A DNA stretch of 64,000 nucleotides from Candidatus Omnitrophota bacterium (GTDB lineage Bacteria; Omnitrophota; Gorgyraeia; 2-01-FULL-45-10): the NCBI GenBank assembly GCA_017993955.1, contig JAGOLR010000002.1, forward strand, positions 26-64,025, read 5' to 3'. Position 1 is the stretch's first letter. Each line of letters opens with the position of its first letter. Made by a program: the position numbers and the translations under genes. The notes under the pieces are model-generated. The model worked only from the letters and a program-made list of their open reading frames with translations, had not been told where the DNA came from and ran no database searches. Shown piece by piece: positions 5,604 to 43,015 of the stretch.

Positions 5604-5684
5604 ATTTTTCCTCCCGGGATTTTTTGGAAATCTTTCCATATGCATTCTTTATTGGATAACTTTTTTATCGTTTTATATATATTA

Positions 5685-5893: not shown

Positions 5894-5951
5894 AAACGAA
5901 AAATCCGGCTTTACAATAACAGGTTAAAATAGCACCCGGTACAAGAAGATG

Positions 5952-8900
5952 CTATGCCGCCCTAAGTATAAGTTTCACAAATTCTCTGTGCATCCTTATC
6001 TCTTCTTCGTAGTTTTTCGGGAGATTTTCCGGGAGATATTTAAATATATTCTTCTCTTCGTCTTTGGTAAGGTATGGAATGTTCCTCCAATAACCGCTCT
6101 GCGCGAAGAGTTCCAGTAATACTTCATAGCTATTCGTATCTACCGGACCGGCGAGCTCCAATTTTACCGCGTCGATCGACACTTCTTTCAATATCTCTTC
6201 GTAATCTTCTATCTCGCCTTCCCGCGCCCGGATACCGATATGCTTTATCCCTGATGCGCGCAATCCCGAAACTACCCCGTGCAGCTCTTCTTTTGTAACA
6301 GCGGTCACGTAAGGAGTAAGCCCCAGGGTATCTATATATCTTGCCACCTTGGCCTTATCGCTAGCCAGTTCCGGATCGGTGATAAGGACTATCTCTTTTA
6401 CCGGGTCATCATCTTTTGAAGAGACACCCTGCCTCTTCTGCCTTCCGGCTATCTTATCTCGCAGGGCATACATCATCTCGGCATCGAGGACTCCCTGCGT
6501 TGTGATAGAGACCGCTTTAGTCCTATCGCCGATTATGAAAGAATTAAGAAAAGCGCTTTCCGTATGGGCAAATTCTCTTGTATTGGCTATAGTCCTGGCA
6601 GCGATGGCCGGCTTAAGAGCTTCCAAGGAAGCCCTTACCGATTCTATATCCGCTGGAGAGACCGCAGGTATGGTCGCCGCGAGAGACTTTACTATATCTA
6701 CCATGCCCTCGACTGTCATGTATCTGAGACTTGAAGGATCCATGCTGTAAATATAGCCTTCATCGGGTGGATTGACATCTCTCTCTGTAGACATAAGATA
6801 TTCGCGCAAAGCCGGTATCGCCAACCCATACGGCAGATCGAGAACTACGCCGCGTCTTGCCCTCATCTTATATGCAAGATCCGAAAGCTTCGGATCTTCC
6901 GGGCTGTTGGTCTCTATCTCTACCAGGCTCACCCTTAATAACGGGAATGTGCTGTCTATGAAATTCCTTATGCCGTCCATGCCTTCGCCCGCTATGGTCC
7001 CGGAGGCTATACCGATTACTATATCGGCCCGCCCCGGCATCTTTCTCTGTATCTCTTCAAGGGCTTTTTGGGCCATCTCTCTTGACCGGGGTAGTTGAGC
7101 CTCTTCTTCTATATGCTCCAGGAGTCTATCTGCCAATCCGGATAATGTATATCTGGTATCATGGAAAGTTAATTCCCGCCCAAGAGACAGAGGATTCAAT
7201 GCGACATCTTGCAGAAAAGGGATAAAATATTTGGCTAGGTTTATTCTCTCGGCATCTACAATCTGATTGGATATATAGGACAAGGTAAGACCGGATATGG
7301 AGTTTTGCTCGCCGTTATACCGGACTTTTGTAGAGGAGGCTTCTTTGTCGTACACTATCTCCTTTAACATCTCGATAGAGCCCTGGGGGGAAAGATCCAT
7401 ATGCTGATACGTGGCAAATAATGCATAGACATTTACCGGCAATCTCGAAGTCTTGGATTGCATTATCCGGCCGGGCCTTGCGTGCAGTATTATATCCTTT
7501 ATAACTGGTAGCGAATACTTGTGAGGTATGCGATGTGGGTCTGAGAGGGCTGTTATTATATCTGCCGTGCGGGAGCGGCCGGTCTTTGGGTTAAAGGCAA
7601 GATCGTTGTATTCATTCATCACCTCCGCCCTCAGACTCTCGACCTTATGTGAATAATACAAATTCCTGAATATTACGAAGCTCGCCCATACAAAAAAGGC
7701 TACGCTTAAAAATGCCAGGATAGCTTCCGGCGCTATGATAAGCTTATCTGCGCCCCCGTGCAAAGGCATGATAAATATCCCGTGCGAAAGAGCGTTCTTT
7801 ATGGCCTTGCGCCAGGTCGGAAGACTCCCGGCTGCCTCCTCGAGTATCATCTCTGCTTTACGCCCCTCCACGTCTCTAGCCAACCTTATCTGGGCGCCGA
7901 CCCCGTCTGAGATCATAGAAAGGCCGTCATTTATCTCCCCCGACATAACCTCATCGGCGCATTCTCTCAGGGTAGTATATCTCAAATATTCTTTAAGCTC
8001 GCCGACCTTGTGGCTTTTTACCACCATGCTGACTTCGACCAATTTAAAGGTATCAAGTAGTGATATTATATAGAACAGGAACTTCCTGGAGTTTGCCCAT
8101 TCGCCGCATATACATACCTCTGCGCGGCTTGCCGGCGGCGCATGCCGGTTATAATCGTTAACACCATTAAAGGCATTGCGCACATTTCTCACAAATGCCG
8201 GGAAGAGGACATGGTATATCTTTTCAAGCCGCTCGTCGTCTCTTTCGTAGGCATCAGAAAAGCTCCTCTTTGACAGGTCGTTTGTGCCGATACTTATATA
8301 AGAGAATAGTCCTTCGCGCAATATCTCAGGTACGGCAGCGCACGCCGCGGGTGTTTCTATCATAGCCCCGAAACGGACCTTGTCGAGGTCGCTCTTGGCC
8401 AATCCTTCATCGACAAGTTCGGACTTGATTTTTGAGACCAGGTCTTTTAACATAGATGCCTGATCTTCATTCTCCACCATCGGGATAGTTATTCTTATAT
8501 TCTTTTTTTTGCTGGAGGCCGAGGCGCGCAAAAGAGCTCGTAGCTGGATCCTTATTATCTCCCGGCCCTTGATGTCCTCAAAATAGAACGGCACGCCGTA
8601 CAGAACCGGCCTTTCAGAAGTGACGTAACTGCGTCTTCCGCCTTCACCATCCACGGTGAACCCTACGGCGTCTGCTATGGAGACCATGTCTTTAAGCTTG
8701 TCCTTCTCCATGTCGAGAGTCCTGAAGGTGACCGGGCCCTCCACCGAATCTGCGGCCTTTAGGGCCTGAGCGTATATCTCGTCCTCGGTGGGTTCCACCT
8801 TCCGCATGTACATATTCTCCATCCTGATAAGCCCCACGCCTGCAGCCCCATAACCTTTAACCAGCGCAGCATCGGGCTCAATACGGGGTATGTCGGAGAG

Positions 8901-11900
8901 AAACGTTATCTTTTCGCCATCCAGCGTCTTGGACTCCTCAGAGCTGTGTTCGCGGTATATCTCTTTTAATATCTCCCTCTCCCTGCGCCGCTCTTCATAA
9001 TAGCGCATGACCGCAGGGTTAGATTGAGGATTGCGCACAATCCTGCGCCTGGACGCGTCTATAACTATAAGATCGCCCGTCTCGAGGTTTCGCAGATCCG
9101 GCACCCCCGGTATGACCATGATAGGCTCGCGCATATCCTCCATCAGCATGTCCTCTAAAGTTATCACCCAATGCGATCTTGAGTTGCCGGTCTCGGTGGC
9201 GATGGCGGCTATATCGGGATTCTTGTCGACGAATTTGAAGGCGTGTATCTGGTCCATGGCATCGGTAACATATATGGTGGTAGCCTCGTCTTCCTGATCT
9301 ATAGATGAAACCATACGGCCATCCATAGCTATGGCAAATAGCGCTGCAAACTTATTCAAGGTCCCGGCAAGAGAAGGGTCCGCCGCGGAATACTCTTGGG
9401 CGAACCGATAGACCAGCTCGCTCGCATTCGGCCCTCCGTAAGCTAGCGACAATACGATCTTTTCCGGAAGGCCGTCGATAAAGTCCTTTATAGAATCTCT
9501 TTCGTTCCTTCCCAGATACACCAACGCATCGGAAAAAGCTTCCTCGGCCTGACTTATTTCTATATCCATCACGCCATCGAGCTCAGGAAGCGGTCGGTCT
9601 GCATTATGCATGTGACGCACCAATTCCATCAAGGCCATGTAGGCATCCACGAGCCCCTCATAGACTTTCAACTTTACAGACTTCTCCGCCTCCGATATCC
9701 TCTCTTTCTTTATATCCGCTATATTTCCCATGAATGTCTGTACAATAGGCCACATCTCTCTGGCCTTATCAAGGAGCTTCACGTAGGAGCGGCGCTTTTC
9801 GCTTCTCACAAAACCCCTGACTTCGTCGAGCAATATCGGATCCGAAAGAAAGCTAATGGTATTTAAAGCAACCGACTTGGCCTCTTCGGTATTAGCCTCA
9901 TCTACAAGCCGCGCGGCGTTTATCTTCATGGCCTGTATCGTCCTGTCCAAAACGGCTATCTCTCTTTCGACCCTGTCGTCGGTAAGCCCCGAAGCCGCGT
10001 CTTCTATGTCACGCAGACTCGCCAGAAGCCCTTCGATCTTTCCCGCATCTTTATTCTTGCGATTTTTCCGAAGCCTGTCCAGATAAGGCTTGATAGAGAT
10101 ATCGAACGTGAATATAAAATTTTTACCTCTCTCCTCTAACGCTTTGAACGCCTTTTCGGTCGATTCTCCCAATTCGCGCAGGGAATCGCCGCTTAGGCCC
10201 AGACCTGGTACTATATTATCGATAGCCCTCCTCATCCTTTCCGATTGCTCGGCGATTTTGGTCTTACGCTGGCGGATGGTGTCATGCTCGGTCCACATGT
10301 CCTCATCGGCCATCTTTGTGCAATCAAGAAAGGAGACGGAACGTTGGACGGTTAGGAATAGAACCTCGTCGCCCTTTACGGAAGGTATCTCTATCTCCTC
10401 GGGCGTAAGACTTTCGAGATGGGACGCAAGCCTGTCAAGCTCCGCGAGCATAGACGGATCTGAATTTAATAATTCTTCGGAATCTATGTACCTATTCTTA
10501 TCCGGATAAAGGCTGCGGCAGAGGTCCTTCAACATCTCCGTCTGGCTCTCGTTTAGAGCGACGCCTCTGGCCTTATCGTCTTCCGGACCTAAAGATGATA
10601 TATTCTTTAGCTCAAAGACTGTTATACCCATCCCACCCGCGGCATACGACCAATTCGATATCGGATGCACCAATACCCCTTCATCGGCCATCCGGTTTAA
10701 AACCTCTGTAGTATCGTGTATAAGACGCGAGGACTCTTTACCGAATATCATCACTTCCGTGTGGTCAGCGTCCGGCGGGTTATACACCGTAAATATATGA
10801 TCGTTTTCTAAGGCCTCCACCATAAATTGTCTCGACATGCGGTAAGCCAGGCCGCATTCGCGCACTAATCTTTTCGGCGCCGCCGCCAATATATGTTCGC
10901 CCGGCATGCTCTTTATAAAATCCCCTACAAAGTTGCGCGGCACTTTCCTGAATAGGCGCCTCAACTCTGTGGTCATGATATCGCGCCTTTGGTCGGCCAG
11001 CATCTGTTTGAAATCGCTCTGGACTATCGCTTCTCTTTGCCATATATCCTGTATTGGGATGGCCATGAGATTGTTCTGTATATCACTTCCGTCATAAAAA
11101 CGATTTACGAACCATTCGGCCGCGGCCTTTGCCTTATCCGGGGGAAGGCTTGCCAGGTGCCCCAGGACGGCCTTCTCGGACCTGGAATAATATCTGCCGG
11201 AATGGAACATCTCCCTGCCTTCCGCCTGGAGCGATCTTTTAGCTTCCGAGAAGAATCTGTCAATGCGAGATTGCAGTTCTTTATTGGCCAGGGTCTTGCG
11301 GTGCAGAGGCAAGTCCACCTCTAATATTATCCGCGCTTCTTCGGCCTTCAACTCTTCCCTTGTAAGAGCAGCGTTGGAATGGGCAAGCTCGTGAGCCAGC
11401 CTTTCCGCCAATATGTGCAGGACGACTTCGCGATGGTCATATTCGTGCTCAGACAAGGTCTCCACAAAGTCTCTGTCGAATACAATATAGACATTGCCGT
11501 TATCGTCTATGTACTTTACGCAGTTGGTCCCCAGATTATTTACTACTTCTATCTGGACAGGCTTATCGCGTAATAACGGTATAAAATTAGCAAGAAATGC
11601 GCGGATCCTTTGAACTATGCTTTTAGGAAGAAGAACCTCGGTGCCCTTAAGCAGACCGTAAAAAGCTGTTGGGACAGCTTGCTCTCTCTTATAGAAGATG
11701 CCGTTACTATAACTATAGTCCCCCTCATATCTTTTAATAAAATCTTCCTTGGATATCCTTCTCGGGCTGCCGATAGGAACGGCCATAGTAGCGGCTTTCG
11801 TCTGATAAGCCTCGATCGACGGCACATACGCCTTCTCTTCGTATTCTCTGATAAAGCGCTCCATTGTGAAATGGGCCATTACGTCGTATATCACATTCTT

Positions 11901-14900
11901 GGATCTGGAAGTCCACTTGTCCTTGTCGCCCGCGAACTCTTTCATTAGACCCAGAAGCGCGGAGTACATATTCTCCCTGGTCTGATCATCCCTTTCCTTT
12001 GTGTCGCCTATATCGCTCTCTTTAAATATAACTGCCGCTCCCGGCGCGCTCAACGGTTCGCCTCCTTCAAGCGCTTCTACCGCTCCTTCCGATTCCAGGA
12101 CCCAGCCGTCCGGAGTGGAAAGGCTAACCACGCCGTTCAAACCGGCCTTCATGCCGCTGGTACCGCTTGCCTCCAAAGGAGGTATGGGGTTATTGAGCCA
12201 TACCGAGGCTATCCTGGTAAGATCCCTTGCCACAGAGATATTATAATTCTCCACGAAGAATGCCGTACCGGGATAACGGGAGATGAATTCGTTTATCTGC
12301 CTTATGATAAGCTGGCCCCGATCATCGGCAGGATGGGCCTTCCCTGCGAATACCACCTGGACCTTTACGCCCAGACGTTTAGCCTCTTCCATAAGGGCGT
12401 CGAGTTTAGGCAATATGAGATCGGAACGTTTGTAAGGAGCTGCCCTGCGGGCTATCACCACCACGAATGCGTCTTTGTCGAGTTCTACGCCGCGCGATTC
12501 TTTCAAGTGTTCCACGGCGCGCTCCCTAGATCTGTCAAGGACCTGCCGCAATGCCTCGTTATCGATACTGCCCAAAAGCGTCTTAAGCTCAGCCTCTGAT
12601 AATTCTGACAGGCGTCTATCTTGCGGTATCGCTCCGTCGCGCTTTGTTCTCGTCAGGCTTTCGGCAAGGATACTTTGCAATTCCGGGGATTGCCAGAACC
12701 GCCTGTGAACAGCATTCGTTATATAATCTATCGTATCGTCCTTATAAAGCCTTCTAGAAACCTCACCGTGTTTTTCGCTTACCCCGTTGGCATAACGGGA
12801 AAGGTTCAGAGCTAGCTTCGACAGATTTACCATATACTTGCCGTAAACTTCGCTTTCATAACTGCTGATGCCGAGTATATCTTCTATATCCATGCCGTTC
12901 ATGCCGGAGTAATTTTCAAAGAACCGTCTGAACATGCCTATGTCAAACTCCTCGTTACCATCCGGTATTGGGGTGTGTGAAGTAAAGGCCATCCTCTCCT
13001 TTACCGCTTCACGGGCTGCAGTAAAGGTAATGCCGGCTTCCATCAATACTTTTCTTTCGACCTTGCCTTCCCTTATCTGAACGTTGAGATCTTCTAAACC
13101 CAAACCTATCTTGGCGGCTCGCGCCTCCAGCTCCTGTCGTATAAGTTCTATGCCGGAAAGCGCGCTGTGGCCTTCATTCATGTGAAGAACCGCTATCTTA
13201 TGCCCCATAGCCTGGAGAGCCCGCACACCTCCGACTCCCAATAACAACTCCTGCATAAAACGCCAGTAATCCAGGTCCTTAGGCAGTATATTGCCCATAT
13301 GGTCCCTGCCTCTTGCGTAAAGATTGTGCGTCAGCTTTCGGGCATTAGGCTCTGGATTCAATGACTGATCGTCGTTTTCCGGAATATCTGTATCGAGAAG
13401 ATAGAGATCGACTCTGCCTACCCTTATATGCCATATCTTGGCGTATATGAATTTGCCCGGAGTAGACTCGACTTTTATTACTATATCTTTTCCGTTTTTA
13501 TCCTTGGCAATGTCACCGTATTTTTCGAAAGGTATATCCCTGTAATACTGGACCTGGCTTCCTACGGGAAGATCCGCATATTGCCCGCTCAGATGGTCCT
13601 CTTCCGTAACTATATGCTGTTCAAAAAATCCCGTCCTGTAAGCAAGCCCCATCGCCACAAAAGTGTTTTTTGGGTATCTGTCGTTGGCGGCCCAGAGGGT
13701 ATCGCCGGAAAGTATGCCGAGACCGCCGCTATAGATATTGAGCCACTGGGAAAGGCCGTACTCTAGGCTGAAGTACGCTATGCGTTCGCTCTTACCCAAT
13801 CCGAGAGACCTCCTTACCATCTTCTGCCTTTCATCGCCGTCCATGTACTTGTAATATCTGGACATAAGGGCAAGATAAGTGTTTATCTTTATTTCGGCAG
13901 AATCCGCCAGGGCGGCATCGAGCTCTTTCTTGAATGCGGCAAGTTCCGGGTCCTCTATCACGGCTATGTTCTTTGCTATCCTGCGCAATCGCGCCAGCAT
14001 CTCTTCGGAGTTAGCCACGACATTGGAAGAACCTTTTATAACAGCCGCCGGTTCGGCTATACCTATACTATCGGCAGTGGCCCCTGTGACTCGCCTGAGA
14101 CCTCTCATAAATAATCCGTTTTCTTTTACGACTCTTTCGAGAGCGGATACGGCGGGCTGTATATCTATGGTCTTTCTGGAAGCGCAGGCGAGTACCAGGT
14201 CGATGTCTTTTCTGGTAATGGCCCCTTCGTGCATATCGCCTACTTCGTGGGAGAGCTCGTGAGTTATACCCGCGGAGAGTATGATAGCGAATAGCTCTTT
14301 AGGCATATTGGGGGCTACTTCTTCGAAGAGTATTCTATTTATTCCTATAAAATTATTTTTTATGTGGTCTTCAAAAATGGATTGGGATCTTTCCACGAGG
14401 GCTATAGAGATGGTGCGTCCTTCAAGGGCTCTAAGGTCATCCGGGCCTCTCGTCTTTATCGCCTCTTCTATAAGCTTCTCCAGATCTATCCTGTATTGGT
14501 CGGAACCCAAAATATCGAGGATCTCTTGGTCCACTTCCGCCTTGAAGCGAACCGGGACGTCTTTGTCTGTACGGCTAAAACCTATATCGAGCGTTCTCAT
14601 GCCTCGGGCTGTTTTTATATAATCTATAGCAGCGGCGATATCGCTGGAAGAGTAATATAGCTCGCCCTGATCGGCCTTTATGTAAAATCCGTTTTGGCAA
14701 TGGTATTTTCCGCCAATCTTTGCCTCGTCAATCAAAGCCTGGAAATGCGCCGTCTCCGGAGCGTACAAATTTGCCGGCTGATAAGGATTTACTTCTACCT
14801 TCATGCCGGCCATATTGATCGTCCCGGAAACAAGACGCGCAGTCTTGTTATCAGGATCAAGCCTCGAGAGCCTGTCCTCAAGCTCCTTCTTCTTGCCTTC

Positions 14901-17900
14901 TTTAGCGATAAAGAGCGCAAACCCTCCGCCTCCGGCGCCGCAAAGCTTGCCGCCTGCCGCCAGATCGCTTACACTCTGAAATATACCTTCTATATAGCTA
15001 TTACTTGCTTCGGGGTTTAATATCTTCCATTCTTTCCAGAATTCGCCGACAAGCCTGCCCAGCTTATCTATATCTCCCGACCTGATCGCTTCGGATACGG
15101 CATCGTCCATACCGACAAGCCTTTCGCGCGATTCGGATTCTACGCGGTTATGGGTAATGTAATCTATAACGATCTTCCGCAGAATATCGCCTGCGAAATG
15201 GCTCTTACCAACGTAGTACAGAACTACCCTTTCCTGGAGCTTTCTTACGAACTCATCCGACACCGCGATAGGCTCTACTACCGGATGAGGCGCTCCCGGC
15301 TTTGAGGACACAAGCTTGACTCCGCCGAATATCCCGCCCACGGGATCCTGCCACCCTCCGCCTATATTCAGAATGTGCTCAAGAAAGAGAGTCGCGTTCA
15401 AGACCTCGTCTTTTGATTTGTTCTGCCCCGATATCCTATAAAGGCCTTCGAGAACGCAAGCGTCGAGAATACTTGAGACGCCGAGGCCGCTCCCCCGGGG
15501 CACATTCACTTCCACTTCAAGCTCTATCCCGCCTCCGAGAGATTCAAGTATTTCCGAAAGCGGCCTGGTTTCCGACATATCTATAATACCGGAGACTATA
15601 AATGCCGCCTTAAAAAGCCGCAGGGGATCTTTTTTGTCCTCATAATCGAATATCTCCTGGACAGAATCGACGACGTGTTTTATATCCAGGTCTTTAGAGG
15701 TTATACTTATAACGCGTTCTTCCAACCTCCGCACCTTGACCTTTATGGGCGTTTCCCCGTCCAGGTCGAAAGCCATATTCACGGCCCTCCCGCCCCTGTC
15801 AAATGTTATGGCGAAAAGATCGGAAGCTCCTCCGTGAGATAGATCTATCCTGACAGGCGAGGAGACGATGACCTCTTTATCTTTAAGGTCTTCCGGTATC
15901 TTTAACGCCTCGCGCGAAATCCCGATATTGCGCTTAATGGCGCTCTTTATAGTATTTATGGCAAGGTCTGTGTAATTATTCTCTATCCTTGCCCCGACGC
16001 CAAACCAGCTATATCTGGAGTATATGTGGCCTATCAACAGATAGGCCCTTGCCTTTGTAATTACGCTCGGGAATTCGCCTATGCTCTGCTTCAACCTTTC
16101 GGCAAGAGCAAATAATCTCCTTCTATCGCTTTCGGCTTTTGCCAGAAGTTCCAGGTTCGACATAGGGCTACCGGTATATAGGGCCTGCATGACTTCACCT
16201 ATGAATTCATCGCTCTTGGCTCTGAATACTGCGCCAGATCCTATCCCCGGCATATAATAAGCCGCCGGTTCCCTGTAACCAGCGGCATGCGATACTTCGT
16301 GCCTTTCTATGAAGTAACGCGCAATCCGTCCGGAGAGAGAGTTGTGGGGTATATTATCGTAAACCCTCCGGTAGGCTTCCGGTTTAGCTGAAGGATCGTA
16401 TGTAACGTCGCTGGAATCTGATATGTTGTACCATAGATACTCTATTTTCTCCGACGTACCGTTATACCGGGCAATATCGCGCTCATTACCGTTTGGACCA
16501 AACGTACTTACATGCGAAGATGCGAAGGCCCGCTTTATTTCTAGGGCTGTTATAAAATGTATGGCTGTATAGGCAAGGCCTAATCCGGAGATAAAGCCAA
16601 ACAAGAGATGCCAGTATCCGGGAAGTTGGACGGCAAATGTTATAAGTCCTGATCCGGTCACAAAGGATTCTGCAATAACTAACCATTTTATTACGGATAT
16701 ATTTATCGGACTGGGTTGCTCCTCGCTTTCGGAAGACACAGACCCTGCCTGCAGGAAATCGAATTCATCCGGTCGAACCGCATCGGAAGAGCCGTCGGGA
16801 CGCCCCTCTTTTATTATAGATATAACACCCGGATCTCTTTTTGCAAGTAGCGCCTTCATGGCGCTAAGAGGCCTATCATCGAGACCTTTGCCACCAAAGA
16901 AAGTACCGAATAACTCTAAAGTCCTTGATATAGGCTGGTAGTCTATGTTCCTTAGGGCGAGTAGACGGCCTGCGTTATTACCGTTCTCGAATACGTCGCA
17001 TAATATCAATATGTCAAGAAGGAGCTTCATCTCCCCTGTAGACATGCCCGATGTAGCAGCTATACTATCAAGCGCGGCAAAACTTTTTGGATAGAAGAAG
17101 TGGTTGTCTATTATGAACTTCTCGGCAGGCGTAAGGCTTATTCCTAGCTTGGCAAGCCTGTCTACAGAGTATCTTTCGTGGCTCAATTCGCTTACCAGCT
17201 CTTCGGCTTTCCCCGGAGGAAGGGGCTTGCCGTCCAGTGCGTAGGCGGCGGCTACTAACCTGCCGGCGCTTATATAGTACTTTTCGAAATCCGGATCGGC
17301 CGGCAATAAATATCTTTCCAATTCTGGGCGGTTCGCCAAAAGGCTCTTCATGTCGGCTACCATCTCTTCTTTCGGCGTGTGTACACGTATACCATATTTT
17401 TCTATCATTGCAATATTACCTTTGACCGCTCCAGACGCAACTTCTTCCACGGTAGCGGCAAGTCCGCCCAGATCGTGTATTGCGGATACCCTTCCGATAA
17501 GATCTACAAGCTCTTCTCTTATTCCAAGTTCGCGCGCTACGGATACGGCAAGTCTGGCCACCCTCCGGTTGTGAGATTTGTTTATATTCTCACCTCCGGA
17601 TAACGGCGATGGAGAAAATAGCTCCAGAAGCGCTTCGATGGGATATTCGCTTATGTGCCTTAAGGCGCTCGACTTTTCGGCAGATGGAAGAGAATCCATA
17701 TCTACTATATGGGTCTTTGCCTTATCGAATCCGGGATAAGGGCCTAAAATGATCTCTATGACTTTTGAGTCACTCGGGAACTCTATGGAATGGCCGGCGA
17801 GATTCAATATCATATCGCCCGCTTCCAGAACGACATCCCTGACAAGGACTCCCTCTTTCGTGTAGACCTTGCATTTCACAAGCCCTTCCTGTACTACGAA

Positions 17901-20900
17901 TAGTTCGGGAAGCGGATTTTCGATGGGCGAGTTCACATGAGGAGTAGCCGCAGGAGCCCCGCTTTTCGGAGATTTAAAACCTATGCCTATCGGGAAACCC
18001 GGGTTCGTAATGAGCGCGTATTTCTCGGAATTTATCTTAGCCTTCAATACAAGGGCAAGCTGGTTCCCGCTTTCGCCATTTACGACCTTAGGTACGCTTT
18101 CTCCCTGTATATTTAATGGAACCACGGAATCATCCGGGGATCTGACAACGTCGAGATCAGGCTTCTGAATTACCCTGCAGATCTTCGAGTCAGTGTTGGC
18201 TATGACATGATATTTTCCGAAAATGGTAGCGGTGTCTCCTTTGCCAAGGGTGATGGTCTCTTGCTTCTTGCCATTTTCGTATATGTCTATTTTTAGAAAA
18301 CCTTCTTTTACAAGAATAACTTCCTGAAGGGGGGCGTCTCCGGTTGTCTCGAACTCCTCGCCTTCCTTTAATATCCTGACCTCCAATCCTATCCTGGGGT
18401 CCGGAGTACCTTCGTAAAAGTTGTCGCTTTTTATCAGAAGCGCCAATCTCTCTCCATTCGCGGATATCTCCTGGGCCGGCCTTTCGCCATGGTAAGACCG
18501 GGGCTTCAAAAATTCCATCTCTCCAGGCCGTAACGCGTCGGATGACCTTTTAGGCCTTGATTCCAACATGAGTTCCATCATCCTGCGTTCTTCTCCTGCC
18601 AAAATAGCCCTGAGCGCGCTTATGGCTCTGGGGTCTAGCCCTTCTTTGGACTTAATATAGTTAAACGTAGACATTAAAGACTGATATTCTATGCCTCTCT
18701 GATAATGAAGCCTCTCAGCGTTGTTGCCGTTCTCAAATACATCGCATACTATGAGCACGGAGAGCATAAGCTTCGCCTCTTCCGGCGTTATGCCGCTCTT
18801 CGACGCTGCTTCTTCGTATTCTTCCATCCCCGCGGGATAGAATAGATGGTTTGAAATTAGAAATTCCTCTAAAGGATTTATTTCAAACCCCAGGTTCTTG
18901 AGGACATCCAAGCTATGCCGCTCGTGGCTTATGTCGCTGGTAATCCATTCGATCTGCCATGCATCAAGGGTCTCTCCGTCCATGGCTGAAGCCGCGGCGA
19001 CGACCCGGGCTATACTTACATAGTATTTATCATCGTCGGGGACGACATATCTTGAAAGTTCAGGCCTTTCCGCTATAAAGGCGCGCAGTTGTTCCAATGC
19101 ATCTTCTTTTCTTGGCTGGGAGGCAAAACCGTATCTTCTCAATATGGACTGGTTTAGCTCTTTGTCTTCTCTTGCTGTAAGCATCGCCTCGTTGGCGCAG
19201 CTTACATCGTGGACTATCCCCACCCTGCCCAGGATATCCACAAGCTCTTTCTTAAGACCGAGATCTTCCGCTACCATAACAGCGTAGGCGCTTACCCTCT
19301 TCACGTGCTCCCTGTTCAGTCCACCGCCTTTTATGTTGGGATAAAGGGCGCAAAGTTCTTCTATCGAATATTCAGCGAGCTTAGTCCTCGGTCTCTTCGC
19401 TATCTTAGAAGACTTGCGGTATAACTCCTCGTATCTATTACCGGCCTCTCGCCATGTCGAATCGAATAACATGCAGTTGGATACCAGCTTGCCCCATACA
19501 CCTCTATTCCTTTTAAATAACATGTAAGCAGAAGCTATAGCGTCATACATAGCCTCGGGGCTGTATTCATCAAAATTAAATCCGTTACCTTCTCCGGTCA
19601 TGGGATTAAAAGGAGTTATGACATCGCTAAGACCGCCGGTTTTGAATACTATTGGCACGGCCCCGTACCTCATCGCCTCCATCTGCACCAAATTGCAAGG
19701 CTCCGTACCGTAGCGCGAAGGTATTATAACCGCATCCGATGCCGCAAATACCGTCCTGGGTTCACCAAATTCAGTCCGTATGTGTATCCTGCCGGCGTAT
19801 TTCATCGAAAGCTCTCCCAGGCGCTGTCCGTATCCGCCTACGTCAGGACCCAGCATCACAAGCTCTACGTCTTGGCCAAGCTCGCTCATCATGCGGTCGA
19901 TATCGGATATTATGAGATCGATGCCTTTTATATAATCGTACCTTCCCACAAAACCTATGACAAATTTGTCATTGCCTTCCGCTAGGCCGCTGGCTCTTTG
20001 ATACCGCAGTTTGTTATTTCTTTTGCCTGCTGCGGACGTACCGGCGCCGAAGACATCCTTGGCGTCTATCCCTGCCGGGACCGCGGGATCCCATTCCGAA
20101 TGGCTTATACCGTTCAATATAGAAAAGTAAGAGCCGGCCTGGAAACGTTCCCGTAGGATATCCGCAAAATCGCCGGCCACTTTCGCATCCAATGTCTCCA
20201 TAAGGTAACTGTGCCCTACGGTATTTACGGTATCCGAAAATATTACGCCTGCCTTTAAAAGCGATACCCCGCCTTCATACCTGAAGGCGTCGCTGTGGCT
20301 TGTAATGATATCCGGACGGCCTGCGGCAAAGGTATTTGTCTTATCGGTGCCGAAAAGGCCTTTATATGTCAGATTATGGATTGTCAGATTCGCGGCTACA
20401 TCATGAAAATATTCGGCATACTCAGGGAGATTCCTCATGTAGAAAGGCACCAGTGCCGTATGCCAGTCGTTGGCGTTGACTACATCCGGTTTTATCTCGA
20501 GCGATTTGATAAGCTCTAGAGCCCCTGCCGATAACAGGGTGAACCTGTCAAGCATCGCATCGTCTCCGCCGCCATATGGGCCGCTCTCATTGAAATATTT
20601 CGGGTTTGTGAGCAGATAAGCCCACGTGCCGTTCAGGTAAGTCCTCCGGACTCCGAGCGTCACAGACTCGCCGCGCAACCAAACTTCCAAATTTATATTA
20701 AGGTCCTCGCCGGCTTTTACGTCGTATCCGGGGGTTATGACGGCGACTTCGTTACCGTTACTATTAAGGTACTCCGGAAGCTCCAGCGAGACATCCCCCA
20801 AACCGCCTGCCTGGGCCACCCGTCTCATCTCTGCGGTAACGTATATTACCCGCGATTTTCCGGGAGCTATAGGTTTGACGCCGAACTGCTCTTTCCTGAA

Positions 20901-22859
20901 CTGGGGCCATATCTTCTCCGTGGAGCGGGAGTAAGCTAAAAGCGACCGCAAAGCGCGGTCCACAAATGCCGGGCTCTTAGGCGTAAAACCTTCTACGGGG
21001 CGGTTACCGTGTTCTTCCTTGAAGGCCTTATAGAACTCGCGGTAATTTTTGGACCACAGCCCGACAAGCCTGTTAAGCTCTTCCGCTTTCGCCTTCTCGT
21101 CGCGTATATCCTTTGCCGCCTCATACAAGGCCCTGGTAAAATCCCCGGAGTAAGAGTCGAACTTCTCTTCTTCGGTCTTTGACGGATCCTGGGCGAAATA
21201 CGCCCTTGTAGCTATATGGTACTGCCCGGTCTTGAGGAGTTTTTCGTAAGGCTTCTTCTTGTTTGTCAATATAGCTATGTAAGGACGCTCGCCCTTAGAG
21301 GGGTCGAACTTCGGCAGCATAACAAGATAGGAGCATCTCCTGTCGCGCAATAGACCGGTAAGTCCGCTCGTATGGTATCCGCCGGTTATAAGACATGCGG
21401 CCCGGGCTCCTTCAGAGTTCATCCGGCGTATAGTATTCTCGACCATGACCCTATTGCGCTCTTCGGCTGTAGTGTAGAAACTTATGGCCGCGGGAAGGGC
21501 GTCAAATATATTCTTTATAGATGCCGGATCTTCTATGCCAAGACCTGTTTTGCGGGAAACCTTTTCTAAAATGGCCGTAAACGCCGCGGGGTTTAGGGAT
21601 CGGCTGATTTTTATAAGTTCGGAAAATTCGTCATTACCCAATTGGAGACTGAAGAGACCGCCGGCGTATTCCATAAAACGCATGCATAGATCCAGCGCCT
21701 TCTCATCGTCATTCCTATAGAGCTTATTCTTTATCGCCGCGGAATAGTCCCGCAATTGGTTTGGTATGGAAGGGATGTCTATCTTTTCGTATTCCGAGAT
21801 ATACTCCGCATACTTGCAGAAAGAGGAGAATCTGTAAGGGTCGACGCCGTTCTTCTCGGCGGTGGACTTAAGATATGCGTGAAAATCTCCCGATGATATC
21901 CCGCCCTTCTTGAATTCCATGATGGACGAGACAAAAACCTCGAGCTCATTTTTAGTAAGTCTATCTGTTATGGCCGATATTATCGCCTTACGTTCGTCGT
22001 TTGCTTTTTCGAAATCTATAGACTTTTCCTGGTGGGTCAGAAAGGCGAGTTTTTTCAGATCCTTGTAAGGTTCGAGATCCATCCCTGCCTTGGCCGCTAT
22101 CGGACTTAATACGGACCATAGATGCTTGAACGGGATCTTACCGTCTTTATAGAGCGAGACATTCCCGTCCAATGCCTTGAGATCCTCCGAGTAAAGCCTA
22201 GCTGCCATATTCTTCAGAAGTCTCGTCGTACCTTCTATGTCGGCTCCTACCGTCTCAGCCTTTTCGCATACGCTACGGAGTTCCTCGACATTCCTTTTAT
22301 AAAGCTCGTCCTCTTCTATGCCGTAAAGCGCTATGGGTTTTTCGGAAGTTATGGAGAAGAACTCGCCAGCGGACATCCTGCCCTCTTTCATAAGGTTCCG
22401 GGCGGTGTTATCGCGGACTTTGGCGTCTGGGAATGTTTTAAGTAGAGACGTATCGATATAACCGCTCGTCCCTTCTACGGCCACTACCTTGATGTCGTAG
22501 TTTTTGACGAGCGTATCCAGGATAGACGATATAGATTCCTGGGCGCCTAGATAGGCGTGGGCGTCTTGGATGTTTATGATCGTTTTTCGTTCATCGTTTA
22601 TCGTTGATCGTTCATCGTGAGACCAGGATTCGCGGATATCGGCAAGACTCTTTGGAATGTTAATGGAAGCGTTTACATTATTGGGTCTAAAAAAGGCTTT
22701 GTTATCTATACTTTGAGGATTTTCCGACGAGCTTGTGGGTTTTGAGACAGGCGTAACGGCGTCCTGCGCCCAAAGGATATCCTGGTTCACAAAAGTCACG
22801 ACGAGAATAGCCGCGACTATTTTGACCCAGATATGATTTTTAAAACTAAGTATGCTCAT
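5952..22859 (-). CDS. giant (5635 aa) signal-peptide-bearing multi-enzyme fusion protein: conserved N-terminal module, glycogen synthase (GT5), 2x HD-like, 2x cupin-like, GHMP kinase, alpha-glucan phosphorylase (GT35), PEP-utilising enzyme domains, HExxH motifs, 2 internal TM segments
   Basis: Uninterrupted 16.9-kb ORF from ATG 22859-22857 to TAG 5954-5952. N-terminus [33 protein letters not shown] is signal-like. Domain motifs were read in frame; coordinates were checked by back-translating EASGTSGMK at 12147-12173. Confidence 0.9.
   Translation of the reverse strand: [5635 protein letters not shown]
8160..9197 (-). other. PEP-utilising enzyme domains (phospho-histidine swivel domain plus PEP/pyruvate-binding TIM barrel; PPDK/PEP synthase/EI-like)
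   Basis: GNSRSHWVI (compare GGRTSHAAI); [12 protein letters not shown] (compare GIGLxRTEhmF); [12 protein letters not shown] (compare MIEvP); [13 protein letters not shown] (compare FFSIGTNDLTQ). Confidence 0.7.
11790..13802 (-). other. alpha-glucan (glycogen/maltodextrin) phosphorylase domain, GT35
   Basis: [10 protein letters not shown]...[47 protein letters not shown]; PLP-lysine motif [14 protein letters not shown], back-translated at 12147-12173. Confidence 0.85.
14760..15722 (-). other. GHMP sugar kinase domain
   Basis: ATP-binding motif [15 protein letters not shown] (compare PxGSGLGSSAA) and motif 3 [13 protein letters not shown] (compare KLxGAGGGG). Confidence 0.7.
16770..17627 (-). 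other. HD-domain-like module, copy 2
   Basis: [20 protein letters not shown]...[12 protein letters not shown]. Shares [11 protein letters not shown](E/G)RL and RPELxRY blocks with copy 1. Confidence 0.45.
18540..19367 (-). other. HD-domain-like module, copy 1 (H...HD metal-dependent phosphohydrolase signature)
   Basis: [22 protein letters not shown]...[11 protein letters not shown]. The module is internally duplicated; see copy 2. Confidence 0.45.
19410..20858 (-). other. glycogen/starch synthase domain (GlgA-like, GT5)
   Basis: N-terminal motif [20 protein letters not shown] (compare E/KTGGLxDV). C-terminal motif [36 protein letters not shown] (compare PSRFEPCGLxQ...GxxP.V.xTGGLxDTV). Confidence 0.85.
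22260..22577 (-). other. conserved N-terminal module shared with gene 1 (unassigned fold)
   Basis: [16 protein letters not shown]...[22 protein letters not shown]...[15 protein letters not shown] aligns with gene 1 IHIQDAHCNYEAQTNI...KLVSVEGADGIVDTSWFKAFPD...EFLSITTDYPIKLFG (nt about 5049-5381). Confidence 0.55.
22580..22621. repeat. imperfect heptanucleotide tandem repeat (TCGTTNN x6) inside the 5' end of gene 2
   Basis: tcgtttt tcgttca tcgttta tcgttga tcgttca tcgtgag. Encodes [15 protein letters not shown] on the minus strand. Confidence 0.6.
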
Positions 22860-23109: not shown

Positions 23110-26100
23110 TTACGCTGACGCCAGAGTCGTCTTCCTGCCCTCATTGATCTTCTTCAGGTCGTCGTACTTCTCCACTATCGCCGACGGAGTCACGATGAGT
23201 ATCCTGCGGACTGCGTCCGATCTATCGTTATCCACCATCGGTATATTAGGAAGCTCCCCGCTCGCCGCGAAGTCCACCGCCGTCAAAAGCAGATGCGTGA
23301 TATCCACGTCTATTTGGCTGTCGAGAGACTCGCCGTATTTCTCATAAGCCGCAAGGAGTCGAGACGGATTTATACCTATAAGATACGCCCTGGCCTCGCT
23401 GTCTGTACTGCGTAATGGAGCGAACGCGGAGGACTTCTCGATAGATTCCTGAGACGCTATCGCAACGACATTCGAAAGGCTCGTTCCGGTTACGTCCACT
23501 CTGAGCTTCAGCTCGCGCGCCACATCATTATCGCTCCCCGTTATTATCTCCACATCCCCGAGGCCCCAAGATGTCATCTTTCTATATATGATCGACTTCA
23601 TCTCGTTAAGGAATCGGTTCGTCATATTACGCTGTAGAGACCCCATCTCATCATAGGCCGGTATCCAGCCGGTGCCTATACCGACCAGGAACTTCTCTTT
23701 CCGTTGTTTAGCGTTTCTGGTTTGAGCTATCAAAGATGAGAAGACACCGTTTGCCTCTATTTCATCCAGGCCTTCCATCAATTCCTCCATAGCACGCGCT
23801 GCGTCCTCGGATAGGCCTGCCTTGGCTTTCTGGCTGGCGCCGGTTATTACCTCGCTTATCCTATGCATTACCTCGGCCGTGGAACCGGTACTTTCTATCT
23901 TTCCGGATGTCACATCCCCGCCCTGCCCCATGGCGTTAACAACGTCGGCCAAACCATTTGCCTTCTTTACCATTTTGGCACGGACATTATTCACGTATGA
24001 TTCTATCTCCGCAAAAAGACCGGAATTGTCCTGACTTAACGGCTCGGATTCTCCGGTAGCTCTTTTTTGATTTTGAATGTTTCGAAGAATTTCGGCAGGA
24101 TCTCCGGACTTTGCGCTATTACTGCCCCCGTCAGTCCAGCTAAACGTTTCTATCGCGGGGAAAGAATCCATAGAGGCGAAGTAACTCAACTCTATATCCT
24201 GCATGACAAATTCATCCTCCGGGATGTCGGCGCGCTCTCTTACTATCCTGTCAAGCTCTTCGGTCATGGCAACATAACTGTCGAACGCCTCGCGACTTTC
24301 AGATATAGGATTTACAAGATACCCCAAAGTAACATGAGCTTTATACCCTCCCGGCTCGCTTATCCCTGTAGCTTCCTCTATTAGAGACCGCAGCCTATTA
24401 ACAATAGCCAGATCTTTCTCGGTCTTTGGCTTCATCCTTACTATGAGAGGGCGCGTCATGCCTGATGGCCTGAAAGCTACCACGCTTTCCGGAACAAATA
24501 CCGGAGCCTTATCCGCAACAAACCCGCGAAGCGCCTCGTAAACACGCTCGGTTACTACTTCGTATGCGGCCTGTTCCCTGGCTTTCTCTTCAGAACGGAA
24601 ACCGCCTTTTTGTATAAGCTCAACAGCGCGTTTATTAATGGCATCTTTAGTCTCTTGATTAAGTTTCTCCCTATACTTACCCGCCCAATCTGACATGCAT
24701 ATTAGGTCGCTTAACGTAATATGTTCAGAACCTGAAGCCACCGTAGCTATGAATCCTCTTCCGTTTTCTTTAGGCCAATTATTAATTACACCTGTAAGTT
24801 CTCTGAAAAGCGGATAGTTTCTTTTAGGGTGGCTTGATATTACCGTAACTCCCTCGAAAAATACAGGTTTACCGTCAGGGCTGTATTTTTTATGCGCCTT
24901 TTGTATATCGCCACGAAAAGGACCCTTGGCCTCTTCAGCTTCGGGATATACGGGTCTCATAGAGATATTTTTCTCCTGCGACGATACACCATTTACCGCC
25001 TGCGTCATCATCCCGTCTTCCGCTCTTCTTATCTCTGTGGATTGTTCCGAATTACTCCTGTGATGCAGGAATACATAGACTATCATACCGGCTACGATCA
25101 ATGCCATCGCTGCGGGAAACCAATATGAATATAGGAAGTCGAACATAGCGCTGTTAAATTCGAACTGTGCTTTTTCTATAGGGAAAGAAAACCCTTCCGT
25201 AAATGCCGGCCCGGCGAGGGTCATGGCTAGAATCAATATACCCAAGACACCTTTAAGCGTACTCTGTTTGGGCGCCGTTATGGGCCTATATAGATTGCGC
25301 CAACCCTCGGGAGACGCAGCCCTCAAGCCAAGCTCCGATTGACTACTGCCCGGCTGGGATCCCACCCCTATTTCGGTCGCATCTACATACCCGGATATAT
25401 CACCCTTCTCGCCCGGCGCTGCGGCAAGATCCCTCGTAACAACAGGCAGTCTCGGACGATGTGGAGTCCTGTTAAATATATCGCGGGCAAATACGTCTTT
25501 TTCCTGCAATTTATCGAAATATCTCCTGATCCTCTCTGCGCACTCCGTATCCACACCGTCTCCCGGGACCGGACCCAATATTGCAGATAATCCCGCCTTT
25601 AACTCGCCTACGACGCGCTGTCTTGAACCGAAAGAAACCGCTTCCGCCAAGGACCTCCATTCTTCGTCGCCGTACCAACGCACCCGGCGGTCCACTCCAG
25701 GCACATCCATGGGATGCCCGGACACGTTCAACAGATATACAAGATCCCTCAAAAGCATAGGCGCCTTGAATAAATCCTCCCATTCGACATTAGCGCCCTT
25801 ATAATACATGAGGTCGCGAAGGTTGATGAGCGAAAGAAGGTTATCGCGCGCATTCTCGGAGCCGTCGCGGGCTATATATTTACCTTCTTTATCTTTCAGT
25901 ATATCCGCCACCTTTACCAAAGAGACCTTCTTTACGGCTCCGTCGTCCCCGATTATAACGGCACCGCCGCGTTCTGTCGATTCCAGCGCTCCGCTCACGC
26001 CTGCCTTGTTAGTGGACCCGGGATCGGCCTTGACTATCAAGCCTCCCGCGAAACTATCTATGACCTCTTCTTCGGTACTGCTCTTATGCCCTACGATTAT

Positions 26101-42948: not shown

Positions 42949-43015
42949 TATAGACCCCTTGGTTTTGTTAAATCCAAATTACAAATTTCAAAATCCAAAT
43001 AAATGAAAATCTTCT

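Follow-up and report, generated by a model that had tools for sequence, protein, structure and literature searches.

A giant Omnitrophota polypeptide with a signal peptide carries GlgA-type synthase, α-glucan phosphorylase, GHMP kinase and Enzyme-I-like modules and belongs to a large modular family

Omnitrophota are tiny, host-dependent bacteria. One ORF from a Candidatus Omnitrophica MAG, here called ORF B (5952..22859; GenBank MBP7055307.1), raises the question of how enzymes for making and for phosphorolysing α-glucan come to stand on one polypeptide that opens with a secretion signal, and on which side of the membrane such a chain would work. ORF B is the second in a row of four giant ORFs in the window, by which we mean the whole 64-kb stretch of DNA analysed, and it lies on the minus strand, as do all features described below. 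It reads from an ATG through 5,635 codons with zero internal stops, confirming the single uninterrupted polypeptide reported by a first-pass annotation. An in-frame TAA lies immediately 5’ of the ATG, and the N-terminus lines up with those of homologs. Because 5,635 sense codons follow one another without a stop at 49% GC, a chance origin of ORF B is excluded. Promoter- and terminator-like sites flanking the ORF are in no excess over chance.

The contig comes from a metagenome assembly, and the junction between the GlgA module and the downstream part of ORF B has no independent support, being present on this single contig only; separate genes might have been fused by chimeric assembly or by a mis-called ORF. 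Against this stand the stop-free frame, GC content and skew that are uniform along the whole ORF, fragments from a second, independent MAG that match at 94% (aa 2135-2888) and 96% (aa 2892-3715), the collinearity of a relative, P0001, with aa 2706-4969, and homologous giant ORFs that number in the thousands, some of them on complete long-read genomes. The fragments and P0001 together make a chimera unlikely across aa 2135-4969, and the orthologous cassettes of ORF B and P0001 are 46-49% identical across more than 2,800 aa. On the even GC and skew, the collinearity and the independent fragments we reject an assembly artefact, the probability of which we regard as negligible.

The families assigned in the first-pass annotation (GlgA, GlgP, GHMP kinase and PEP-utiliser on one chain) agree with HMM searches and with alignments to solved structures, and each of its hallmark motifs was located in the translation. 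Firstly, a GlgA-type glycogen/starch synthase (GT5 + GT1) occupies aa 670-1149 (19413..20852). It matches Glyco_transf_5 (PF08323, 174 bits) and Glycos_transf_1 (PF00534, 60 bits) and aligns end to end with the structures of SS4, SSI and E. coli GlgA (E 2e-51 to 1e-46). It scores 353.7 with TIGR02095 glgA (cut-off 328.45), stays under every GlgA equivalog cut-off (e.g. NF001898, 316 vs 603) and is at most 31-37% identical to free-standing GlgAs. Residues D798, H828, N829, N916, R973, K978 and E1053 are (nearly) invariant in the 120 nearest GlgAs, and we take them to be the equivalents of the catalytic D137, H161, N162, N246, R300, K305 and E377 of E. coli, a numbering taken from an E. coli sequence 27% identical to the target. 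Two features set the catalytic loop (SRYGTEPCNL, aa 1048-1057) apart from the canonical EPCGL form: E1053 is preceded by a 2-aa “GT” insertion, and an invariant Gly is replaced by N1056, each found in 0 of the 120 relatives. Since this loop is non-canonical, the module may be inactive or shifted in specificity. As for the KTGGL lysine singled out earlier for checking, KTGGLSDV is indeed present (aa 1073-1080), but it is a C-terminal look-alike; at the N-terminal KxGGL position (AQAGGLGDV, aa 682-690), Lys15 is replaced by Gln683, whereas 91 of the 120 relatives have Lys.

Secondly, an α-glucan phosphorylase (GT35) with PLP-lysine K3571 spans aa 3023-3713 (11721..13793). It is of the TIGR02094 type (429.7 vs 191.7; PF00343, 79.5 vs 27), unlike the GlgP/MalP type (TIGR02093, 65 bits vs a cut-off of 553). 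It aligns with PDB 9l6i (E 3e-71) in two stretches on either side of a ~35-aa insertion, and the motifs EASGTSGMK (aa 3563-3571), RRAAPYKR (3471-3478) and GKAHPAD (3506-3512) match those of 9l6i, so that the PLP lysine and the basic phosphate-site residues are kept; FTSHTPIP lies at aa 3292-3299. Thirdly, a GHMP sugar-1-kinase (aa 2325-2688, 14796..15887; PF00288, 36.4 vs 22.3; PF08544, 26.1 vs 21) has as its nearest relative the fucokinase half of Bacteroides Fkp, the whole of which it aligns with (PDB 5yys, E 2e-48). R2337, D2505 and the glycine-rich motifs II (PRGSGLGVSS, aa 2454-2463) and III (GAGGGG, 2641-2646) are kept in that alignment, including the equivalents of Fkp R592 and D762, which we take to be catalytic. 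Bacteroides fragilis Fkp (PDB 5yys, 9iip) is a bifunctional L-fucokinase/GDP-fucose pyrophosphorylase, and the cassette in ORF B corresponds to its kinase half only: the match covers positions 581-971 of the 974 in the Fkp profile, at 265.8 against a cut-off of 721, and with the pyrophosphorylase half missing, membership in the bifunctional family is rejected. Upstream of the kinase lies linker L1 (aa 2104-2327, 15879..16550), which moves together with the GHMP cassette and has an HEVSH at aa 2187.

Lastly, an Enzyme-I-like module (aa 4557-4945, 8025..9191) combines a PEP-binding TIM barrel (PEP-utilizers_C, PF02896, 135.6 bits vs 22.8; motifs MIETPAA, aa 4833-4839, and GTNDLSK, 4858-4864) with a putative phospho-histidine, H4563, in TGNSRSH, whose likeness to the GGRTSH of EI was judged by eye; Pfam detects no phospho-histidine swivel domain (PF00391) on ORF B. 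Alignment to E. coli EI 199-530 (2hwg) places R4679, R4713, E4835, N4860/D4861 and C4918 at R296, R332, E431, N454/D455 and C502, presumably the catalytic residues and Mg/PEP ligands. True PtsI membership is rejected on the family score, which is far below the cut-off (TIGR01417, 134.7 vs 341.7). The region before it (aa 3876-4560, 9180..11234) is kept in P0001 and a further relative, P0002; it has zero Pfam or PDB matches, with PEP-utilisers_N (PF05524, the N-terminal HPr-binding domain) scoring weakly and below threshold at about aa 4288-4355 (15.3 vs 24.4, E 0.022). P0001 retains everything from the phosphorylase to the Enzyme-I-like module as a unit.

Are these modules still enzymes? It has been emphasised in published proposals that giant proteins serve prey adhesion and cell-wall digestion, and the cassettes could accordingly be non-catalytic binders of carbohydrates or other ligands. 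The GlgA module lends itself to such a reading, with its unique GT insertion, the Gly-to-Asn change beside the catalytic Glu, the Lys15-to-Gln change and its 31-37% identity to free-standing synthases, and all NCBIfam equivalog cut-offs are missed. However, the four modules all keep catalytic or cofactor residues (PLP lysine, GHMP motifs, Mg/PEP ligands and Cys of EI), and the identity to the P0001 cassettes is what purifying selection on enzymes would be expected to leave. Systematic loss of catalytic residues, raised in the first-pass annotation as a sign of pseudo-enzymes, is thus rejected from the alignments of the four modules and the 120 nearest GlgAs, the exceptions being confined to GlgA, and a purely binding scaffold appears improbable.

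A synthase and a phosphorylase on one chain had also suggested a futile cycle. In a glycogen cycle, energy is dissipated where NDP-glucose is made (GlgC/UGPase), and GlgA and GlgP are ordinarily expressed together in bacteria. HMM searches detect no NDP-glucose pyrophosphorylase or other nucleotidyltransferase domain on ORF B. Thus, with the ATP-consuming pyrophosphorylase step off the chain, ORF B is unlikely to be a futile-cycling machine, and its glucan synthesis would need sugar nucleotide from outside. The E. coli pathway, whose glgBXCAP operon is named in PMC11046441, uses the same enzyme families (GlgA, PDB 2qzs/3d1j), and its HPr-GlgP regulation is echoed by the conserved block from phosphorylase to Enzyme-I-like module; ORF B differs from it in the GlgA loop and in that GlgC, GlgB and HPr domains are not detected on the chain.

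Between the synthase and the kinase lie two HD-like (HD-GYP-related) modules, copy 1 (aa 1181-1452, 18504..19319) and copy 2 (aa 1759-2037, 16749..17585). The duplication proposed earlier is real: chunked BLAST aligns aa 1236-1485 with aa 1815-2070 at 40% identity (E 2e-56). Both copies have H...HD; PF01966 scores 19.5 against a threshold of 22, and the family profile finds the HD-GYP enzymes 5z7c (6.6e-5) and 4mcw (3e-3) over the H..HD helix pair only. A single-sequence PDB search with aa 1150-2060 gives no match, and at Pfam E ≤ 1 the eight unannotated segments of ORF B give practically none. The supposed cupin duplication fares less well. Two beta-barrel-like segments (aa 1469-1750, 17610..18455; about 1469-1565 and 1598-1710) are mutually related (Smith-Waterman z = 8.3, 0 of 500 shuffles), but their cupin identity is unconfirmed, Cupin_2 staying below threshold (E 0.14, 12.3 vs 27.2) and cNMP_binding, also sub-threshold, scoring higher (E 0.002); the second copy matches neither. 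At most, the segments could plausibly form a generic double-stranded beta-helix.

The ends of the chain define its family. Giant modular proteins with a signal peptide, a head, a string of independently folding cassettes and a tail form a very large family, to which ORF B truly belongs. The Sec-type signal peptide (aa 1-31, 22767..22859) has a basic n-region, a hydrophobic core (aa 10-28) and a signal-peptidase-I-like site (NQDILWA|QD), with a net charge of +3.0 ahead of the core and -0.9 past it; it was proposed in the first-pass annotation and is kept in 203 of 213 complete N-termini of the head family. The head follows (aa 32-640, 20940..22766). It shares the α/β fold of the EreA/ChaN/TraB/TIKI-like superfamily, of which HopBA1, RRSP, EreC and ChaN are examples, with the core divided by a ~300-aa helical insert. 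Its invariants are Q98 D99 H101, E129 G130, G493 G494 H496 and R525, with H101, E129 and H496 invariant across 18 sequences. No Pfam or NCBIfam model covers this domain. The tail (aa 5279-5635, 5955..7025) is ~360 aa of α/β structure with a generic HAD-like/Rossmannoid fold, found in 39 of 124 proteins and each time 0-8 aa from the C-terminus. With sequences clustered at 50% identity, a head profile search returns no fewer than 9,402 clusters (6,190 with E ≤ 1e-30), and in the best 150 matches the head starts inside the first ~130 residues. The best 80 genomic loci are all from MAGs labelled Omnitrophota or “uncultured Planctomycetia” and frequently have two or three heads per contig, spaced about 30 kb apart; same-head relatives reach ~8 kAA among the matches listed. 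“Uncultured Planctomycetia” is a coarse MAG label.

Cargo varies between these ends. When aa 1-5000 were used as query, 119 of the 120 best relatives matched ORF B at aa 1-600 only, and P0001 carries a GHMP cassette like that of ORF B at another position. Thus, the first-pass annotation was right that HD modules were duplicated internally, but the dominant growth process is cassette shuffling among paralogs. A constant delivery part with variable cargo is also the plan of modular multi-effector toxins such as MARTX and polymorphic toxins, to which the family comes near. Relatives of ORF B bear SecA DEAD domains.

ORF B is not a one-off. It is one of four tandem giants, and it belongs to an already described class, the giant multi-enzyme proteins of Omnitrophota, reported as “Archaeovorins” (West-Roberts et al. 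2023, bioRxiv 10.1101/2023.11.21.568195) and as class 1 “multi-enzyme metabolic clusters” (Nielsen & Lui 2026, bioRxiv 10.64898/2026.06.07.730766). Shared features are the Omnitrophota origin, unrelated enzyme Pfams tiling one chain, the signal peptide, sparse TM helices and clustered giant genes, together with the family's GT5 + GT1, PGM, FBPase, PEP/pyruvate-utilising, HD, HEAT/TPR and radical-SAM domains. GT5 is the second commonest domain type in giant Omnitrophota proteins, whose N-terminal regions are described as without identifiable domains (10.1101/2023.11.21.568195). The main texts of the two preprints make no mention of the GT35 phosphorylase, the GHMP kinase, the GT5 + GT35 pairing or a conserved head or tail. 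At 5,635 aa, ORF B is below the length cut-offs of these catalogues (≥10 kAA; “giant” ≥30 kAA), which would therefore largely miss the family that the conserved head (9,402 clusters) and tail define.

On which side of the membrane, then, do the cassettes work? Location and function of giant Omnitrophota proteins are an acknowledged gap in knowledge. Their glycolytic domains are predicted to be extracellular (10.1101/2023.11.21.568195), and 94% of long proteins have a signal peptide or TM segment (10.64898/2026.06.07.730766). ORF B bears on this paradox, in which export is predicted for chains that bear metabolic enzymes, and its own main puzzle is one of topology: enzymes that depend on cofactors stand behind a secretion signal. 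With three to four hydrophobic segments and four well-understood, assayable enzyme families, it is a small and tractable test case. The two internal TM segments proposed earlier are both found by hydropathy: a hairpin of two hydrophobic helices (aa 2057-2103, 16551..16691), with an equivalent ahead of the GHMP cassette of P0001, and a single strongly hydrophobic helix (aa 5046-5064, 7668..7724). The topology proposed here for ORF B is based on hydropathy and charge bias. Across the family, Kyte-Doolittle counts of TM segments from head to tail are even in 18 proteins and odd in 10, so that parity is too crude a guide.

With moderate confidence we read ORF B in full as an exported, envelope-tethered α-glucan/sugar-phosphate enzyme chain of the head-cargo-tail family. 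Sec would export the chain, its few TM helices would hold it at the envelope or host interface, and the cassettes, with α-glucan and sugar phosphates as their likely theme, would work there as separate tethered enzymes that make and phosphorolyse α-glucan and process sugar phosphates from host or prey. The HD-like and beta-barrel modules, two of each, would have a putative regulatory role. To our knowledge no mechanism is known that exports a ~620-kDa chain, which counts against this reading. ATP-, PEP- and NDP-sugar-dependent enzymes are without an obvious substrate source outside the cytoplasm.

Alternatively, the N-terminal hydrophobic segment and the TM segments would do no more than anchor the chain at the inner membrane and the cassettes would stay inside the cell, where one scaffold would serve ordinary glycogen and sugar-phosphate metabolism, with control exerted by the HD/beta-barrel modules and by PTS-like coupling of the phosphorylase to the Enzyme-I-like module. 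The cassettes are of cytoplasmic type, dependent on ATP, PEP, NDP-sugar or PLP and with catalytic residues intact; radical-SAM, B12-binding and GHMP domains, hardly imaginable extracellularly, occur in relatives that have a signal peptide but lack TM segments; the phosphorylase-to-Enzyme-I block of P0001 fits such control, as does the regulation of E. coli glycogen phosphorylase by the PTS protein HPr (PMC11046441); and West-Roberts et al. warn that a missed TM segment could yield a false localisation. We consider this arrangement possible, though rather doubtful.

Export of the enzymes in question has a precedent. Chlamydia secretes GlgA, GlgB, GlgX, GlgP and MalQ, but not GlgC (Gehre et al. 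2016, PMC4829429), PGM is secreted as well (PMC9251005), and C. trachomatis GlgA is found in the host cytosol (PMC3722199). Like the ORF B host, Chlamydia is a host-dependent member of the PVC superphylum; it co-exports synthase, phosphorylase and PGM, so that glycogen is made and then consumed outside the bacterial cytoplasm, and just as its GlgC is unexported, a pyrophosphorylase is not on the ORF B chain. In contrast, Chlamydia sends separate, normal-sized enzymes without signal peptides through type 3 secretion, whereas in ORF B the enzymes are fused on one giant Sec-signal chain, the export of which we infer. If the Chlamydia-like reading is true, external glycogen handling by host-dependent bacteria would be wider in the PVC superphylum than known. 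A bolder proposal would make the whole family a Sec-exported polymorphic system of metabolic effectors, strings of cytoplasmic-type enzymes (in ORF B the synthase, the phosphorylase, the sugar kinase and a PEP phosphotransferase) sent to the contact zone with the host or prey, or into the host or prey itself. Drawing on the ATP, PEP and sugar nucleotides of the host, they would first sequester a glucan pool and later mine it, in the manner of the type-3-secreted Glg enzymes of Chlamydia, with the EreA/TIKI-like head and HExxH modules freeing cassettes by proteolysis. This joint claim, host-pool mining and proteolytic release included, we offer as speculative.

Whether the chain stays whole matters to both localisations. 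HExxH modules flank the phosphorylase, L2 on its 5’ side (aa 2705-2923, 14091..14747; HELSH, aa 2867-2871) and L3 on its 3’ side (aa 3700-3875, 11235..11762; HELAH, aa 3823-3827). They are homologous (hhalign probability 96%, E 1.6e-9), with the His and Glu of HExxH invariant, and the HExxH of L1 is not homologous to either. TIKI and TraB, of the same superfamily as the head, are proteases. The head hydrolase, the HExxH modules or both might therefore split the chain, once made or exported, into individual enzymes, in which case GlgA and GlgP would never be one active molecule. The superfamily also contains the protease RRSP, the head retains the invariant His/Glu/His, and West-Roberts et al. 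raised self-cleavage for C39/S8 domains in other giants. However, the HExxH-module profile matches zincin metalloproteinases marginally and below significance (1kuf, E 0.017), which keeps the protease reading hypothetical; neither a third metal ligand nor a cleavage site is identified, and chance HExxH motifs are expected in long proteins. Self-processing is thus unlikely on present evidence.

The neighbours of ORF B are giant ORFs as well. ORF A (3..5648; at least 1,882 aa, truncated by the window start) is a paralog whose head is 29% identical to that of ORF B, with a weak PGM_PMM_II domain. ORF C (23110..42948; MBP7055308.1; 6,612 aa) carries HEAT/TPR, GH2, ribulose-P 3-epimerase, CofD/YvcK-like, class III FBPase and LMW-PTP cassettes, and the adjacent giants would thus contribute PGM-, FBPase- and ribulose-P-epimerase-like cassettes. 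ORF D (44286..63998; at least 6,571 aa, its N-terminus beyond the window end) has numerous TM segments and ends in the same C-terminal tail as ORF B.

Four giant ORFs lie in a row on the minus strand and together hold more than 20,000 codons within the 64 kb window: ORF A (3..5648; at least 1,882 aa, truncated by the window start), ORF B (5952..22859; 5,635 aa), ORF C (23110..42948; 6,612 aa) and ORF D (44286..63998; at least 6,571 aa, truncated by the window end). G+C content and skew are uniform across the whole window. ORF B is a real ORF, with an ATG start codon and an in-frame TAA immediately 5', and all the motifs quoted for it in the first-pass annotation were found in place. Exact look-up returned it as GenBank MBP7055307.1, on a 73.8-kb contig, under the record title 'MAG: alpha-glucan family phosphorylase [Candidatus Omnitrophica bacterium]', and ORF C as MBP7055308.1, annotated 'fructose-bisphosphatase class III'. 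Fragments from a second MAG match ORF B residues 2135-2888 and 2892-3715 with 94-96% identity. Assembly artefacts therefore do not account for the fusions downstream of aa 2135; this support does not extend to the GlgA junction. Among the neighbours, ORF C combines HEAT/TPR, GH2, ILEI, ribulose-P 3-epimerase, CofD/YvcK-like, class III FBPase and LMW-PTP domains with ~25 hydrophobic segments, while ORF D has many TM segments, nearly no Pfam matches and repeated '...HEN.HWFLH...' segments.

The first-pass annotation had placed a glycogen synthase, a glycogen phosphorylase, a GHMP kinase and a PEP-utilising enzyme on the ORF B chain, and profile searches bore out all four family calls with scores above curated cut-offs: Glyco_transf_5 and Glycos_transf_1 at aa 670-1149 (TIGR02095 glgA, 353.7 vs a cut-off of 328.45), GHMP_kinases_N/C at aa 2437-2666, TIGR02094 alpha-glucan family phosphorylase (429.7 vs 191.7) and PEP-utilizers_C (135.6 bits). 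All four modules also align over their full length to solved enzymes, namely plant SS4, SSI and E. coli GlgA (E 2e-51 to 1e-46), 9l6i for the phosphorylase (E 3e-71), the kinase half of Bacteroides Fkp for the GHMP module (E 2e-48) and residues 199-530 of E. coli Enzyme I for the PEP module (E 2e-21). Systematic loss of catalytic residues, named at first pass as what would refute the observation, was not found across the four modules. The phosphorylase retains the PLP lysine K3571 (EASGTSGMK) and the phosphate-site motifs RRAAPYKR and GKAHPAD, the GHMP module its two glycine-rich motifs and the equivalents of Fkp R592 and D762, and the Enzyme-I-like barrel the equivalents of R296, R332, E431, N454/D455 and C502. 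Just upstream of this barrel, 'TGNSRSH' resembles a phospho-histidine motif by eye only; a swivel domain was not detected in ORF B by Pfam, and the PtsI family score of the module is far under its cut-off. In the GlgA module, D798, H828, N829, N916, R973, K978 and E1053, which are invariant in the 120 nearest free-standing GlgAs, are all retained, and three deviations from these relatives are seen. Gln683 stands in place of Lys15 (E. coli numbering), a 2-residue 'GT' insertion lies immediately before the catalytic Glu, and Asn1056 replaces the invariant Gly of EPCGL, the latter two occurring in 0/120 relatives. Identity of the module to any free-standing GlgA is 31-37%; free-standing GlgAs are present in Omnitrophota (P0191 and P0239 from our protein search). 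All four cassettes appear capable of catalysis, although GlgA carries a reservation.

These cassettes sit between two terminal domains, giving ORF B a head-cargo-tail architecture. The head, ~600 aa long (aa 32-640, window 20940-22766, minus strand), has an EreA/ChaN/TraB/TIKI-like fold with invariant H101, E129, H496 and R525 and no Pfam or NCBIfam model; the same domain opens ORF A (aa 27-542, window ~4020-5570, minus strand), where a weak PGM domain accompanies it. A search with ORF B aa 1-5000 was used to collect the best 120 proteins (2.8-8 kAA), in 119 of which similarity to ORF B is limited to aa 1-600, and those that are named are all Candidatus Omnitrophota. In every relative the head starts at most 175 residues from the N-terminus (median position 17), preceded by a conserved signal-peptide-like sequence ending 'QDIxWA|QGG'. 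A strongly hydrophobic core is found in 203 of 213 complete N-termini, with a mean net charge of +3.0 before it and -0.9 after it, the n-side being the more positive in 203/203; Ala occupies position -1 of the xWA motif in 98 of 111 cases. The N-terminal signal peptide proposed at first pass is of the Sec type, and its features are common across the family's N-termini. Among 1.84 billion representative proteins, the head profile matches 9,402 clusters, 6,190 of them at E<=1e-30, and the best 80 loci in species-representative genomes all come from MAGs whose label is Omnitrophota or the coarse 'uncultured Planctomycetia'. On several contigs two or three genes with a head lie ~30-40 kb apart, as in the Omnitrophota contigs PLNN01000019.1 (loci L017, L048 and L069), WJMG01000045.1 (L050 and L056) and JAVCCB010000015.1 of Candidatus Tantalella remota (L032 and L057), so that tandem arrays of giant genes recur in other MAGs. 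The tail, ~360 aa (aa 5279-5635, window 5955-7025, minus strand), is found in at least 39 of 124 family proteins including ORF D (aa 6295-6571, window 44286-45116, minus strand), each time 0-8 residues from the C-terminus and ending '...F.YLP..P.DY..E...Y......AA*'; its model resembles a generic HAD-like/Rossmannoid fold and nothing more specific. Both head and tail appear not to have been described before.

Between head and tail, the cassettes are shuffled among family members. P0001 (46% identity) is collinear with ORF B 2706-4969, in the order L2 (an HExxH module), phosphorylase, L3 (a second HExxH module), an unannotated conserved region and the Enzyme-I-like module; GlgA is absent from P0001, and the cassette made of the hydrophobic hairpin, the linker module L1 and the GHMP kinase sits at a different position than in ORF B. 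Apart from ORF B, the pairing of GT5 with a phosphorylase is seen in just one of the 120 relatives, P0073. Cassettes seen elsewhere in the family are PGM, branching-enzyme, UDPGP/NTP-transferase, SecA, radical-SAM, glutamate-dehydrogenase and HEAT/TPR. In ORF B, hydropathy places hydrophobic segments where the first pass had put them: one at the N-terminus, a hairpin at ~2057-2103 and, at 5046-5064, a strong helix. Four relatives (P0003, P0022, P0023 and P0075) have signal peptide, head and tail without any internal hydrophobic segment, and P0003 bears radical-SAM, B12-binding, UDPGP and GHMP domains. These four are the sharpest form of the paradox of cytoplasmic-type enzymes on an apparently exported chain. 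The main rival to export, a cytoplasmic metabolon anchored at the membrane, gains support from the cofactor requirements of the cassettes and from radical-SAM-bearing relatives with a signal peptide and no TM segment; the uniformity of the signal-peptide features across the family speaks against it.

Either localisation would also fit a putative polyprotein, which the head, the HExxH modules or both would cut. The two modules flanking the phosphorylase, L2 (aa 2705-2923, window 14091-14747, minus strand) and L3 (aa 3700-3875, window 11235-11762, minus strand), are homologous with HExxH invariant in both (hhalign probability 96%), and they recur in P0001, P0008, P0010, P0011, P0013 and P0014. 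They may be minimal zincin-like peptidases processing the chain, their match to zincin metalloproteinases being marginal (E 0.017). The proposed HD-like duplication was confirmed, with aa 1236-1485 and 1815-2070 sharing 40% identity (E 2e-56); this module is a recurrent ~275-aa cassette of the giant-protein family, and its profile matches HD-GYP phosphodiesterases over the H..HD motif only. Two mutually related segments sit between the copies (z = 8.3). Of the duplicated cupin claimed at first pass, the relatedness stood and the cupin identity was not confirmed, because matches to cNMP-binding and cupin domains were sub-threshold.

Overall, the first-pass observation stands and its interpretation is borne out in part. 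The futile cycle suggested there is not implied. Profile searches found no nucleotidyltransferase (GlgC/UGPase) on the ORF B chain, so that glucan synthesis would need an external sugar nucleotide, and in bacteria GlgA and GlgP are usually encoded in the same operon and expressed together. We infer that the chain may be exported and anchored at the envelope or at the interface with the host, where each cassette would work as an enzyme of its own on alpha-glucan and sugar phosphates. The best precedent for exported Glg enzymes is Chlamydia trachomatis, like Omnitrophota a member of the PVC superphylum: GlgA, GlgB, GlgX, GlgP and MalQ, not GlgC, are secreted into the vacuole, where they first build and later consume glycogen (PMC4829429), and PGM is likewise secreted (PMC9251005). 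The glgBXCAP operon, and the regulation of E. coli glycogen phosphorylase by the PTS HPr, are on record (PMC11046441); more speculatively, the conserved block from phosphorylase to Enzyme-I-like module might echo that regulation.

The general phenomenon is already published. In giant Omnitrophota proteins HEAT repeats rank first among the domains by frequency and GT5 'glycogen synthase' ranks second, alongside GT1, TPR, PGM, FBPase, aldolase and pyruvate-phosphate dikinase; an extracellular location was predicted for many domains, and the authors noted N-terminal regions without identifiable domains (West-Roberts et al., bioRxiv 10.1101/2023.11.21.568195). 'Multi-enzyme metabolic clusters' have since been defined as a class, with 153 of 779 long proteins containing PF08323, 94% bearing a signal peptide or TM, and a topology said to contradict an intracellular reading (Nielsen & Lui, bioRxiv 10.64898/2026.06.07.730766). 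The main text of neither study mentions glycogen (GT35) phosphorylase, GHMP kinases, PF02896 or a futile cycle. Since both catalogues begin at >=10 kAA, ORF B is a new, smaller member of the described giant proteins. It is a compact test case for the topology paradox.

Just one small ORF intervenes between the giant genes (97 aa, MQDKRGYVYLMTNKTNRAIYAGVTSDL...YEH..., 43135-43428, minus strand). It lies in the 1.3-kb C-D gap and looks like a putative GIY-YIG nuclease family protein. A nested palindromic repeat, GTCATTGCGAGG...GACGAAGCAATCTC-Tn-AGATTGCTTCG...CCTCGCAATGAC, is absent from the B-C gap and present as one copy in the A-B gap (5781-5904) and ~4 in the C-D gap (43001-43114, 43435-43524, 43762-43861 and 44142-44273); it looks like a REP/MITE-like element.
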